Below are positions 13,242-19,164 of a DNA stretch of 64,000 nt, one piece after another. The stretch is from Escherichia coli (GTDB lineage: Bacteria > Pseudomonadota > Gammaproteobacteria > Enterobacterales > Enterobacteriaceae): assembly GCF_003018255.1 (NCBI RefSeq), contig NZ_CP027440.1, one strand, 5' to 3'. Position numbers and translations under genes: made by a program. The stretch's first letter is position 1. Every line of letters starts with the position of its first letter. The notes under the pieces were generated by a model. That model searched no databases. It worked only from the letters and a program-made list of their open reading frames with translations, and had not been told where the DNA came from.

Positions 13242-14216
13242 ATGACAAAATTACAACTTAAGTACCGGGAGTTAAAAATTATCTCGGTAATCGCTGCCAG
13301 TGAAAATATCAGCCATGCCGCGACTGTACTTGGCATCGCACAGGCCAACGTCAGCAAATATCTTGCTGATTTTGAATCAAAAGTGGGTTTAAAAGTCTTT
13401 GACCGAACCACCCGACAGCTGATGCTCACACCTTTTGGCACCGTGCTGTTACCGTATATCAACGACATGCTGGACAGAAACGAGCAGCTTAATAATTTTA
13501 TTGCAGATTATAAGCATGAGAAACGTGGTCGGGTCACTATCTATGCACCAACCGGCATAATTACCTATTTATCCAAACATGTAATCGATAAAATTAAAGA
13601 TATCGGTGATATCACCTTATCGCTAAAAACCTGCAATCTTGAGCGTAATGCCTTTTATGAAGGCGTCGAATTTCCCGATGATTGTGATGTTTTAATCAGC
13701 TACGCCCAACCAAAAGATGAATCGCTGGTTGCCAGTTTTATTACCCAATATGCCGTAACCGCTTATGCCAGCCAGCGCTATCTTGAGAAACATCCCATTA
13801 GCCGTCCTGACGAACTCGAACATCACTCCTGTATTTTGATCGACTCGATGATGATCGACGACGCGAATATCTGGCGCTTCAACGTCGCCGGGAGTAAAGA
13901 GGTGCGGGATTATCGCGTGAAGGGAAATTACGTTTGCGACAACACGCAATCTGCGCTGGAGCTGGCACGAAATCACCTGGGGATTGTGTTTGCGCCAGAC
14001 AAAAGTGTGCAGAGCGACCTGCAAGACGGCACGCTGGTGCCCTGCTTTCAGCACCCGTATGAATGGTGGCTGGATCTGGTGGCTATCTTCCGTAAACGGG
14101 AATACCAGCCCTGGCGGGTCCAGTATGTGCTGGATGAAATGCTGCGTGAAATTCGCCACCAGCTTGCTCAGTCGCAGCAACTGCGGCCTGAACAAGCGGC
14201 GGAAAGCGAAGATTAA
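13242..14216 (+). CDS. yiaU: LysR-family transcriptional regulator
   Basis: 324 aa; N-terminal HTH (…[23 protein letters not shown]…) plus LysR substrate-binding region. Confidence 0.8.
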
Positions 14217-15349
14217 TGATCGAGATAAAGGTAATGCACCCAGCTGGTCATGCGTAACAGTACTTTGCGCATCACCGAGACATGGCTGAAATGATCAGAA
14301 TAGACCGCCACCTGGGCGTAAATACCGTCTGGTAATGCGCTCAAATCAGTATGCTCATCCAGTTCAATGGTCGCGATAACGCCATCTGAACCCGGCGCTG
14401 TGTTTAACGTCTGTAAGGTGCCGGTCGACTGATAAGCTCCACCGGGAACAGCTGGACTAATGGCTGCCAGCTTACCGCTGAACACTTTGCCTGGCAGAGC
14501 GTTAAATACCACTTCCGCATCATCGCCGGGAGCCAGGCGCAGCAAGGAGTTCTGACGGAACTGCGCCACGATTTGTCGTTTCTGATCGGGTATAAACACC
14601 ATCACCGGACGTAGCGGCAGCGACGCGGCATAGGTACCCGGACGAATCAGCACCTGGGTCACATAACCATCGCTCGGCGCACGCACTATCGTCTGCTCAA
14701 GGTTATATTTTGCTTCCGCGAGCTGCGCTTTCAGGCTGGCGATTTGAGAATGTTCACCCAACACCAGGCTATCCAGCTGGCTCTGGATCTGTTTTTGTTC
14801 CGCCGCCGCTGATTTTACGGAGGCTTCCTGCGCCAGATAATTTTGCCGCGCCACATCGATATCGCGTTCTGAAAACGGGTTTACTTTCGCCTGGCTGCCA
14901 CGTGCGTAACGCTGATACTCTTTAGCGAACTTATCCCGCGTGGCCTTTGCCTGCTGAGTATTCGCCGCCATCTCATCTAACTCTGCGCCCAACGCCCGCT
15001 GTTTATGTTCTGCGGTAACGATATCCGCCATCAGCCGATCCACCCGAGCCTGATAACGCGTCGGGTCCAGTCGAAATAGCACCTCACCTTTTTTAATCAG
15101 CGTATTTTTCTTGTCCGTCACTTCGATCACCACGCCTGTCACCTGTGGGACAACAGGAATAGAAATAACCGCTTTTTGCGCTTTAAAGGTATACGGATGG
15201 TTATAGTTCATTAACAGAATTAGACCGCTGACAATAAATATGCCTCCCAGGGCCGCTGTGGGAATGGTCCATTTATTTACAGGAATTTTGAAGATCTTAA
15301 ACATTGCCCATGCGAAAGCCACATAGGTTAAAATAATCAGTAAATCCAT
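14213..15349 (-). CDS. yiaV: HlyD-family membrane-fusion-like protein
   Basis: 378 aa; N-terminal TM, coiled-coil middle, beta-rich C-terminus; about 80% identical to the second copy at 30765..31901. Confidence 0.8.
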
Positions 15350-15354
15350 AAGTA

Positions 15355-15678
15355 TTACTCGGCAGAAGAGGATTTGATGTCAGCGAGCTGTTTCTCCAGC
15401 CCGGCAATACGCTGTTGTAGTTGCACAACGGAGGAGTCATGGTTTTGCATTCCCCATCCACGCTCCGGGCGGTAAAGCGTGGCCCAAATCCACAAAAATG
15501 GCCAGATAACATGTAACGTAAAAAGACTCACCCAACCAGCAACATGAATGGCGTCGGCATGAGGATGATTACGTTTTTTGGCAATCAGGTAGGGAACATC
15601 ATGTAAAATAATAATCCCATAGAATATCACCAGAAATACAAAAATAAGCACTCCCAATGCAAAATAATCCAGGAACAT
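15355..15678 (-). CDS. yiaW: DUF3302-type small inner-membrane protein
   Basis: Start placed at MFLDYF… by analogy with the paralog at 31904..32266 (MFLNYF…); ORF-track frame extends to 15708. Confidence 0.75.
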
Positions 15679-16108
15679 ATTTCCCTCAGAGAATATAGAA
15701 AAGAACAATTAACGCATATTATGAAATACCATAATGCGGTGCAATTTCCTTATTTATATAACGACATATTGTTTTTTATATACTTTCTGAAGTGTGCAGC
15801 CTGGCTTTTCAACAGTGCGAGGCTTATCATATTGAAATAATGGAACTATTGGCCAAACTAATGAATAACTCCAGTAAAACATCCACAGTACAGATTAAGC
15901 GTATTAAACCTTCAATTATCTACCGTTTATTGCTGATTGGCCTCGGAACGCCAATGGTGATTTATGGCCTGGTTCGCCCGCTCACCATCGAAACGCGAGA
16001 TTAAACTCCTGGCAAAACACGCCCCAGAAACGCACTTCTGTTGACGTAGTCTGGGTTATTGCGCACGTAGGTTTAAAACGTAAATTGTAACAACGTGCGC
16101 TTTGTTTA

Positions 16109-16192
16109 TGCCGGATGCGGCGTGTACGCCTTATCCGGCCTACGGTCAGGTCCCCGTAGGCATGATAAGACGCGTAAGCGTCGCATCAGGCA
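16109..16192. repeat. BIME (two inverted REP elements) downstream of aldB
   Basis: gccggatgcggcgtgtacgccttatccggcctac and the inverted copy cataagacgcgtaagcgtcgcatcaggc; canonical E. coli REP sequence. Confidence 0.6.
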
Positions 16193-16222
16193 ATGAATAC
16201 CCAATGCGACCAGCTTCTTATA

Positions 16223-17761
16223 TCAGAACAGCCCCAACGGTTTATCCGAGTAGCTCACCAGCAGGCACTTGGTTTGCTGGTAATGCTCAAGCATCATCTT
16301 GTGGGTTTCGCGTCCGATGCCCGACTGTTTGTAGCCACCAAACGCCGCATGTGCCGGGTAAGCGTGATAACAATTGGTCCACACGCGCCCTGCCTGTATG
16401 CCGCGCCCCATCTTATAGGCAAGATTACCGTTGCGGCTCCAGACGCCCGCGCCCAGGCCATATTGCGTATCGTTCGCCAGCTCCAGCGCTTCTTCCATCG
16501 TTTTGAAGGTGGTCACCGCCAGCACCGGGCCAAAAATCTCCTCCTGGAACACGCGCATATTGTTCTGACCAAACAAAATCGTCGGTTCGAGGTAGTAGCC
16601 GTCTTTCAGTTCACCTTCCAGCAGCTTGCGCCGCCCGCCAGTGAGCACGTCTGCGCCCTCTTTTTTACCGATATCAATGTAGTTGAGGATGGTTTCCAGT
16701 TGCCCGTGAGAAACCTGCGCCCCCATTTGCGTCACGCTGTCGAGCGGGTTACCGCTGCGAATGCTTTCGACACGGCGGATGGCGCGTTCCATAAAGCGTT
16801 CGTAGATAGACTCCTGCACTAAAGCACGGCTTGGACAGGTGCAAACTTCGCCCTGGTTAAAGGCAAACAGTGCAAAGCCTTCCAGCGCTTTATCGAAAAA
16901 GGCATCTTCTTCATCCATTACGTCAGCAAAGAAGATATTTGGCGATTTGCCACCCAGCTCCAGCGTCACCGGAATAATGTTTTGCGTGGCGTATTGCATA
17001 ATTTGTTGGCCCACTTCCGTTGAGCCGGTAAACGCCACTTTGGCGATGCGTTTCGAGGTCGCCAGATATTCGCCAATTTCCCCACCTGCGCCGTTGACCA
17101 CGTTCACCACGCCCGGCGGCAGTAAATCACCGACGATTTCCATTAGCAGCAGTACAGAAAGCGGGGTAAGACGTGCGGGTTTCAGCACCACACAGTTGCC
17201 CGCCGCCAGCGCGGGAGCCATTTTCCAGCTCGCCATCAGCAGCGGGAAGTTCCACGGAATAATCTGCCCCACCACGCCTAACGGCTCATGGAAATGATAG
17301 GCCACGGTTTCGCTATCAACTTCACTGATCCCACCTTCCTGCGCCCGAATACACGAGGCAAAATAGCGAAAATGATCAATCGCCAGCGGCACATCAGCAG
17401 CACTGGTTTCGCGAATGGGTTTGCCGTTATCCCAGGTTTCAGCGGTCGCTAACAGTTCAAGGTTTTGTTCCATTCGATCGGCAATCTTAAACAGAATCGC
17501 CGCACGATCCTGCACCGAGGTGTGCGCCCATTTATCTTTCACTTTGTGCGCAGCATCCAGCGCCAGATCGATGTCTCGTTTGCCCGAAGACGCCACTTCG
17601 CACAGCAGCTGCCCGGTCACCGGCGTCAGGTTCTGGTAATACTCGCCATCGGCAGGCGCTACCCATTCGCCACCGATAAAGTTGTCGTAGCGGGCTTTTA
17701 ATTTGAGGGGGAAACCATACTCGCCGGGCTTAATCTGTGCTGAAGGGGGATTATTGGTCAT
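16223..17761 (-). CDS. aldB: NADP-dependent aldehyde dehydrogenase B
   Basis: 512 aa from [17 protein letters not shown]… (GGAGACG RBS); ALDH-family sequence. The ORF-track frame extends 30 codons further upstream. Confidence 0.9.
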
Positions 17762-17868
17762 GATCGTCTCCTTGCGGTGTGAGGTATAACAAGGGTAGAC
17801 GTGACTGGCGAAATCTTCGCCAGTCGGTAACAGCTTTACGACGGCTATCACGAATTTACGGGCAAAAG

Positions 17869-19164
17869 CTACAGCGGGTAGTGTGCGACGTACACGGCTT
17901 GCTGGTTATTAATTCTTTTCTCTTGCGCGAATCCTTCTTTAACAATTGTCCGTAAATCAGCTCGAGCCGTATTATCAGAGACGCCCAAGCTCGCGCTAAT
18001 TTCAGCAACTGTGTACTCTTTCCCCGGATTGGCGAGCATCACATTCAGGAGCGTTACCTGGCGCGGATTCAGGCGTTTAAGCACACCAGAGCTAAACAGC
18101 ACACTATCGAGTTTTGCGCTTCGTTGTGTAATTTCATCGATATGCTGCTGCCAGTTTTGCAGAGCACGTTTAATGACACCCGCCTGATATTCAAGGAAAT
18201 AAGTCAGATCCATACCATCTGATTCAGTGTACTGGTAGCTGGCGGCATATTTGACCGGTGCAGCATGAAGCAAACGGCTGATGGAAATATATTTAAAGAC
18301 ATCGTAGCCCGATTTCAGCATATACCAGTAAAACAGCGCCCGACTGGTGCGCCCGTTGCCATCGCGAAACGGATGTTCATGGGCCAGCATAAAATGCAGA
18401 ATGCAGGCACGGACCAACGGATGAATATACCCTTCATGGCTGTTTAACCACTGGCAAACTTTTTCCAGCCGTTCCGGTAACAATGCCGCAGCGGGCGGTT
18501 GATGCACTATATTGCCATCATAGTCGGCGATCACAACATCATCTGTTTCACGAAATTCTCCCGGACGATATTTCGCGTCATTGATTCCACCCATACCAAT
18601 GGCATGTAACTGGCGAATAAGCGCAGGTGTCAGCGGTTCTGCGAGTAAGTGCGGAATTTCCGCCATCAGCCGGGCATTTCCCGCAATCATATGCTCGTCT
18701 TCAGTGCGTGGCGACCGCCCTGTTTCCAGCATTTTTCTCGCCACCAGCGTTGTAGTATTCGCACCTTCCAGTTGGGAACTGGTGATCGGCTCTTCCAGGC
18801 GTAACTGACTTAACTCGGCGCCCGCCCCGCGTAACCGTTCAGTCTGATCTTTCAGCGCCAGTGCAGTGGCATGTTTATCAACAAGCTCGCACGCTTCTGC
18901 AATCACCGGCGTAATGTTGAATCCGGCCTGTTCACCCGCTTCATTGCAATAATTAATTCGTTGGATCGCCGCGTTGCGCGCCAGACGGGTAAGCGTCCAC
19001 GCCACATCGACGTTTTCTCCTTTTTTGATGCGGTACTGCAGCTCATCAAAAGGCAGATAACGTCCTTTTTCATCGGTAACCCGGTTAAAGCGCAGGTGGG
19101 CCAGGAGTTCCTCACCCGATAAGTGTGATAAAGGAATAAGTCCGGGAGGTGATTTGATAGCCAT
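17869..19164 (-). CDS. Fic-domain protein (class II, with C-terminal winged-helix-like region)
   Basis: 431 aa; canonical Fic motif [14 protein letters not shown]; candidate inhibitory motif SSQLEG (S/TxxxEG/N) N-terminal to it; about 110 aa of C-terminal extension. Confidence 0.8.

Follow-up and report, generated by a model that had tools for sequence, protein, structure and literature searches.

Inner-membrane proteins of at most 50 amino acids have been validated in Escherichia coli by ribosome profiling and epitope tagging (Weaver et al. 2019, bioRxiv 10.1101/511675; Stringer et al. 2021, bioRxiv 10.1101/2021.07.02.450978). The open reading frame (ORF) between yiaW and aldB that is studied here resembles these proteins in its similar size, its single hydrophobic helix and its intergenic position. 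It differs from them in having no coding-type conservation and a poor start context, in being a truncation of a larger protein, and in that no evidence for its translation was found. The larger protein is the product of an unnamed gene, here referred to as orf104. With the Escherichia full-length alleles of orf104 the ORF shares the first 38 and the last 9 residues, the position and the upstream region. It differs in lacking residues 39-95, which form the last part of helix 1, the loop with the invariant F-G-x-D-x-V-x-W-N and helix 2, and in the absence of purifying selection. The ORF can also be compared with E. coli pseudogenes generated by deletion between direct repeats, with which it has in common an intact longer orthologue at the site in relatives, a junction with microhomology, a relaxation of selection and additional decay in certain strains. 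Here, however, the deletion is in frame, and since neither a premature stop codon nor a frameshift marks the lesion, annotation pipelines call an ordinary small 'hypothetical protein'. Finally, a segment next to the ORF (16001-16072) matches the last 23 codons of the HicB antitoxin of HicAB type II toxin-antitoxin systems, but it is only a 3' fragment, without a full-length HicB and without hicA, and the HicAB module at this site of the window (the whole stretch of 64,000 nucleotides of E. coli DNA that was analysed) can therefore not be functional.

Our data suggest that the ORF is a gene relic, i.e. an in-frame deletion remnant of orf104 under relaxed selection, and we assign to this reading a probability of roughly 85%. 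It is an ordinary deletion-generated gene remnant, unusual only in that the deletion preserved the frame. Its sequence makes it most likely that it has ceased to function as a protein-coding gene, and it is probably not a new small protein.

The six-frame ORF list places the ORF at 15792..16004 on the plus strand, with the stop codon at 16002-16004 and three in-frame starts: GTG at 15792 (70 aa), ATG at 15840 (54 aa) and ATG at 15861 (47 aa). Its left neighbour is the divergent yiaW gene (15355-15678, minus strand), encoding a DUF3302 inner-membrane protein, and its right neighbour the convergent aldB gene (16223-17761, minus strand), encoding aldehyde dehydrogenase B; the ORF ends 218 nt from the aldB stop codon. 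Positions 15650-16250 are 100% identical to strain 104 and many other E. coli, while the window and K-12 MG1655 differ at about 4% of the positions in the yiaW-aldB spacer.

An earlier, sequence-only reading of this DNA had pointed out an AT-rich, unannotated ORF of about 54 codons with one transmembrane helix and a weak ribosome-binding site, situated just upstream of a BIME. The location was correct: the 70-aa translation contains the 54-aa sequence exactly, starting from ATG 15840. Moreover, the G+C content of 15840-16004 is 42% compared to 51.5% for the window, there is a single hydrophobic stretch (IIYRLLLIGLGTPMVIYGL, Kyte-Doolittle 19-residue mean 1.71), none of the three starts is preceded by a Shine-Dalgarno-like purine run, and putative REP/BIME-type sequence is present 3' of the ORF at about 16060-16233, all as described. 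That the ORF is unannotated holds for K-12 MG1655, which has no gene there, but not for RefSeq E. coli: in the listed records carrying it, the NCBI pipeline calls the 47-aa version as a 'hypothetical protein' (WP_001066082.1), the exception being O157:H7-type records, where this version is not called.

The start codons were compared in an alignment of ten E. coli alleles (92-100% identity). The start of the seven-codon extension from ATG 15840 (15840..15860, plus strand) is not conserved, since it reads GTG in K-12, BL21 and P276M and is followed by TAA as codon 2 in E597 and SMS-3-5. The further extension from GTG (15792..15839, plus strand; the 70-aa form), which overlaps the yiaWV promoter on the opposite strand, is interrupted by a stop codon in O157:H7 and 1919D62, and in E597 and SMS-3-5 it has lost 1 nt. 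The sole version open in all ten alleles is the frame of 47 codons from ATG 15861 (15861..16004 with its stop codon, plus strand), which is the in-frame deletion allele of the 104-aa membrane-protein gene orf104. This ATG is conserved but lacks a Shine-Dalgarno-like run. In the non-Escherichia orf104 orthologues a purine-rich run of this type is located 6-12 nt before the ATG (upstream 40 nt of loci L015-L035). All Escherichia alleles, the full-length ones included, lack it and have instead an in-frame ATG or GTG seven codons upstream, which makes the real Escherichia start uncertain.

With respect to its length, the ORF is not beyond chance: dinucleotide shuffles of the 544-nt spacer gave an ATG-initiated ORF of at least 47 codons in 59% and of at least 54 codons in 41% of the cases, and an ORF of at least 70 codons from any start in 27%. 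These frequencies, together with the weak ribosome-binding site, would suit an ORF that arose by chance in A+T-rich intergenic DNA and has no coding history. This explanation is nevertheless refuted, and hardly credible, because the ORF can be aligned in frame, at its two ends and at an identical chromosomal position, with a conserved gene that is under purifying selection and present in at least nine genera and 28 E. coli genomes.

A word-based protein search with the 54-aa ORF returned E. coli entries only, many of which were altered by substitution, frameshift or fusion, and the link to orf104 emerged only in an exhaustive HMMER search. Its sole addition outside E. coli was a 104-aa protein of Citrobacter amalonaticus, Citrobacter farmeri and Citrobacter telavivensis, the representative of which (P0047) matched with E = 3.9e-5, its first 38 residues being 61% identical to ORF residues 8-45 (54-aa numbering). 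orf104 encodes a predicted two-helix membrane protein of 103-106 aa, located at the same site and convergent with aldB or hicB; in C. amalonaticus the gene order is yiaT-yiaU-yiaV-yiaW-orf104-aldB-yiaY-selB. Relatives were found as named protein entries in Citrobacter (including Citrobacter sp.), Salmonella bongori, Pseudocitrobacter and Klebsiella sp., and as genome loci in Kluyvera, Superficieibacter, two Enterobacter sp. isolates, Escherichia whittamii and Escherichia sp. E1V33. Among 5,426 complete E. coli genomes, 28 carry the full-length 315-nt orf104, about 3,770 the deleted allele and about 1,630 neither. The full-length E. coli proteins include WP_001064340.1 and WP_001064341.1 (the latter in strain EC42405), and the full-length Escherichia proteins read MNNTSNTSTVQLKRIKPSIIYRLLLIGLGTPLVIYGLV-CGILGMFGYD...FGLWLYSLV-RPLTIETRD, with both ends exactly as in the window ORF.

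The 70-aa ORF and three full-length proteins were scanned against Pfam and NCBIfam and gave no significant match. An AlphaFold2 model of the full-length protein, built from 26 sequences (pLDDT 77.7), has helices at residues 17-44 and 59-95 joined by a short loop, and the residues that are invariant in the alignment (F45, G46, V50, W52, N53 and G59) lie mostly in this loop. A PDB fold search with the model gave generic helical hairpins only (E > 3), and thus no fold relative. orf104 represents an uncharacterised two-helix family, under purifying selection beside aldB, that is brought to light here. The N-terminal motif of the family, K-R-[IV]-K-x-x-x-I-Y-R-L-[LM]-L-I-G, is present in the window ORF as KRIKPSIIYRLLLIG, and the ORF occupies the family position, convergent with aldB or with hicBA in between. 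It has neither the length of about 104 aa nor the conserved loop nor the second helix (59-95), and window-type deleted alleles are not under the purifying selection seen in the family. Having lost both the middle of orf104 and its selection regime, the ORF is a truncated derivative and not a full member of the family.

Alignment with the full-length E. coli gene reveals that the window ORF corresponds to nt 1-114 plus nt 286-315, with 5 mismatches. Thus, codons 1-38 and 96-104 are retained and 171 nt, i.e. 57 codons encoding residues 39-95, are missing. The 5' segment (15861..15974, plus strand) encodes the cytoplasmic-type N-terminal tail and the first 22 residues of helix 1 and shares 95% identity with its counterpart in the full-length E. 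coli allele (L036, 2501-2617). The 3' segment (15975..16004, plus strand) consists of the last nine codons, RPLTIETRD, and TAA, and the full-length Escherichia proteins end with exactly these residues. What has been lost is the end of helix 1, the conserved loop with the invariant residues named above (F45, G46, V50, W52, N53 and G59) and the whole of helix 2, which together make up 55% of the ancestral protein. The deletion junction, with an 8-nt ambiguity (15967..15974, plus strand), is situated inside an imperfect 12-nt direct repeat, the two copies of which flank the lost 171 nt in the full-length gene as TACGGTCTGGTT and TACAGCCTGGTC. The junction is identical in all ten deleted alleles, which points to what would be one old event.

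Two other derivations of the ORF were considered. One, that 15971-16004 came from the hicB flank and was joined as foreign DNA to the 5' part of a gene, is ruled out by the full-length Escherichia genes, which share the C-terminus LVRPLTIETRD. The other, that the full-length gene arose by insertion into a 47-codon ancestor, is contradicted by the occurrence of the full-length form in nine other genera.

The ORF had been regarded as either a small membrane protein gene or a chance ORF. Given its orthology to both ends of a conserved gene at the same site, it is not a chance ORF, and the membrane-protein part of that proposal is correct as far as origin is concerned; a functional small gene is not supported, considering the substitution pattern described below and the lost loop.

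The full-length orthologues have dN/dS values of 0.02-0.15 for the whole gene in closely related pairs, and of 0.08-0.20 for the 47 retained codons in five independent pairs (Sd 51.5 : Nd 26.5). For the deleted E. coli alleles (n=10) we counted, in a small sample of 19 changes, without a tree and ignoring recombination, six synonymous and 13 non-synonymous changes (6 S : 13 N) in the ORF frame, with a median pairwise dN/dS of about 0.8; the other two frames gave 4:14 and 3:15. In the same strains the S:N ratios of the flanking genes are 19:3 (yiaW), 54:11 (yiaV) and 118:6 (aldB), and the ORF ratio differs from that of the full-length genes (Fisher, p = 0.008) as well as from those of yiaW (5e-4), yiaV (4e-5) and aldB (6e-10). 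Moreover, the ORF is more polymorphic, with 0.135 changes per nt compared to 0.057-0.081 in the flanking genes. Hence, a coding-type substitution pattern is lacking. Disruption of the frame in close relatives, which the sequence-only reading had named as evidence against coding, affects the extensions from the two upstream starts and spares the 47-codon core.

The features typical of a pseudogene that we find are an intact longer orthologue at the locus, loss of a conserved part and relaxed selection (19 changes). A disrupted reading frame is not among them for the main allele and is seen only in minor alleles: the population protein variants include frameshifted or fused forms (P0034, P0039 and P0032/33/41/42), and others have radical substitutions in the helix (G to E, G to D and L to R). 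About 47% of neutral histories with 19 substitutions would likewise leave the 47-codon frame open, and the intact frame is for that reason weak evidence for function.

One alternative is that the 47-aa peptide, expressed from the old promoter, works as a small membrane protein with a single span. It would then have retained some of the earlier function or acquired another, for instance by contacting a partner with the half of helix 1 that is left. Several observations can be cited for this and weigh against the relic reading: no interruption of the frame occurs in the ten alleles or in the listed records carrying the ORF, the allele is present in about 70% of the complete E. coli genomes, the deletion happens to be in frame (one chance in three), the 5' region is kept with the identity to the full-length allele given above, and the length of the hydrophobic stretch would suffice to cross the membrane once. 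In addition, the core KRIKPSIIYRLLLI (15897-15938) is invariant in the sample, its 14 codons having zero amino-acid changes and one synonymous change in the ten alleles; however, because it is low in synonymous change as well, this core is simply little-varying. Against a functional product, the ORF differs in its substitution pattern both from the same codons of the full-length gene and from the neighbouring genes, radical and frame-disrupting variants circulate in the population, the start context is variable and without a Shine-Dalgarno-like sequence, and nearly the whole gene is gone in about 30% of E. coli, which makes it dispensable. Nor does the ORF have an entry in the small-ORF table from acid-stress Ribo-seq (PMC10746267, file 7), which is weak negative evidence. 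Altogether we find a functional 47-aa protein unlikely.

Shimada et al. 2014 (PMC3946193) reported a yiaWV promoter, CAGACA-17-TATAAA, in K-12 as well as an H-NS mark in the spacer. Mapped onto the window, this promoter is located at 15775..15803 on the minus strand, with the -10 element at 15780-15775 and the -35 element at 15803-15798, where the window strain has CAGGCT instead of the K-12 hexamer CAGACA. The 150 nt around the -35 element (15690-15840) constitute the part of the spacer that varies most among the E. coli alleles. Since the promoter directly abuts the ORF, it is conceivable that the sequence has been kept as regulatory DNA, as an H-NS-bound A+T-rich spacer 60-200 bp upstream of the yiaWV promoter, and that the frame is incidental. 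The promoter and the H-NS mark agree with this, as does the least variable stretch of 42 nt (15897-15938), which is low in both synonymous and non-synonymous change. Yet such a role would not explain how the ORF arose, a question that orthology settles, no binding site was identified in this analysis, and the ORF is more polymorphic than the flanking genes. As a substitute for the relic reading we consider it highly improbable, and as it is compatible with a relic it is no true alternative.

The upstream region of orf104 is retained in the deleted allele and matches that of the full-length Escherichia alleles, and this makes transcription of the relic, and even low-level translation, possible; judging from the retained sequence, the relic may still be transcribed and perhaps translated at a low level. 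A simple scan, too coarse to be decisive on promoters, detected no promoter-like site on the plus strand upstream of the ORF. The smORFer supplement has no entry at the ORF, and papers mentioning yiaW deal with IS1 insertions in yiaW itself and have nothing on the ORF. Inside the relic a weak terminator-like hairpin, ATTGGCCTCGGAACGCCAAT, is followed by a T-rich run (15936-15955, plus strand); the region has two terminator-like sites compared to 1.6 expected from shuffles.

Turning to the aldB side, the 3' remnant of the hicB antitoxin gene (16001..16072, minus strand) consists of 23 codons plus stop, encoding TYVRNNPDYVNRSAFLGRVLPGV, and has a 12-nt internal deletion; it is unannotated. It matches the last 23 codons of an intact HicB of the WP_000499744.1 type, which ends with TYVRNNPDYANRSAFLAEAARRVLPGV followed by the stop codon, and 15971-16072 of the window is 84-86% identical to the 3' end of hicB and its flank in other E. 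coli. The stop codons of remnant and ORF overlap in a common TTAA. The remnant represents a second hicB-type antitoxin gene. Intact hicB-hicA is present at the site in E. coli EC42405, S1-ESP-03-A and Escherichia sp. E1V33. The order in EC42405 is yiaU-yiaV-yiaW-orf104-hicB-hicA-aldB, and orf104 and hicB overlap by the four bases TTAA. Compared to this strain the window lacks 746 nt, comprising the 5' four-fifths of hicB, hicA and their upstream region, and has in their place a REP-containing segment of 90 nt (16073..16162). The following REP sequence and spacer (16163..16222), which end at the aldB stop codon, are common to the hicAB-carrying strains. On the basis of the known REP consensus, we take about 16073-16222 to be probable REP/BIME sequence of the imperfect palindromic GCCGGATGCGGCG...CTTATCCGGCCTAC type. 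A repeat finder run on 15950-16260 with the default seed of 9 gave no repeats. An Rfam scan of 14000-18000 produced, for naRNA4 (REP-derived), three overlapping matches at 16060-16233 that are below threshold (33-39 bits compared to a gathering score of 59.5) and would correspond to REP units of the BIME behind aldB, and given that nothing else was found no known RNA explains the region.

Taken together, these comparisons show the orthology, the deletion junction, how the alleles are distributed and the changed substitution pattern. They allow a history of the locus to be proposed, in which we infer the mechanism and the order of the two deletions as well as the loss of function. The ancestral Escherichia locus would have had yiaU, yiaV and yiaW, then orf104 on the plus strand, and then hicB-hicA and aldB on the minus strand. 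In the ancestry of most E. coli, the 171 nt (codons 39-95) would have been lost through slippage or illegitimate recombination involving the imperfect 12-nt direct repeats, and hicA and most of hicB through a second deletion, with REP sequence left in place. The truncated frame, without loop and helix 2, would then have gathered substitutions regardless of reading frame. As the first deletion is in frame, a 47-codon frame from ATG to TAA survives, which specifies the N-terminal tail, 22 residues of helix 1 and the nine C-terminal residues. This is also why the ORF looks like a plausible small protein both to the pipelines and to the sequence-only reader.

A third state of the locus is found in roughly 30% of the complete E. 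coli genomes, where an AraC-MFS-GH127 block is present instead of yiaT-yiaU-yiaV-yiaW, between a gene annotated as araD (in the sgbE position) and hicB (L003/L017, NZ_CP145620.1 146000-166000, and L004). In these genomes REP sequence abuts the last 8-9 codons of orf104 (PLTIETRD and stop), the only part of the gene that is left, and intact hicB-hicA follows. In Pseudocitrobacter faecalis (L021) MFS-GH127 is located directly upstream of a full-length orf104, which suggests that both left-hand arrangements are old. Three E. coli states are thereby documented, i.e. full-length orf104 plus hicAB, the double deletion, and the AraC-MFS-GH127 replacement.

The stop codons of orf104 and hicB overlap, in a common TTAA or adjacent to each other, in P. 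faecalis (L021, 2998-3713), Enterobacter sp. kpr-6 (L033, 2998-3709), Escherichia sp. E1V33 (L034, 3001-3722) and E. coli EC42405 (L036, 2501-3222), and hicBA is absent at the orf104 site in Citrobacter, Kluyvera and Superficieibacter. This distribution of orf104-hicBA could reflect one old insertion with later losses, or joint transfer. The stop-codon overlap in Escherichia, P. faecalis and Enterobacter sp. kpr-6 gives rise to the idea that the full-length family might work together with HicAB. We mention it beside the separate idea that the 47-aa peptide might still be produced in most E. coli and act as a small membrane protein, perhaps on the binding partner of the full-length protein; gene adjacency and the open frame are the support for the two ideas, and we consider them decidedly unlikely.

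With regard to annotation, an ORF that the pipeline calls a 'hypothetical protein' and that the K-12 curators omitted can now be described as the in-frame deletion remnant of an unnamed membrane-protein gene, and it should not be counted among candidate new small proteins. It also calls for caution in surveys of small ORFs: an in-frame deletion can leave an open, membrane-like and widespread ORF that passes presence/absence filters, and such relics are exposed only by a test of the substitution pattern.

The surroundings of the locus vary further. In strain P276M (L009, NZ_CP044293.1) an IS1 element is located about 120 nt upstream of the ORF, with the relic ORF intact, and a deletion extends from within the gene in the yiaO position (annotated as a partial hypothetical protein) through yiaW. 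In O157:H7 F1273 (L005, 4770-5541) and SMS-3-5 (L008, 4769-5540) a gene for a Fic family protein comes next after aldB, where other strains have yiaY, and strain 2016C-3878 (L004, 4111-5190) has a type I restriction endonuclease gene between hicA and aldB. Finally, one Citrobacter genome (L013, 6388-7751) carries an insertion sequence with an rve-family transposase between orf104 and aldB, and the orf104-aldB interval of another locus (L014) has the same length, with no gene called in it.
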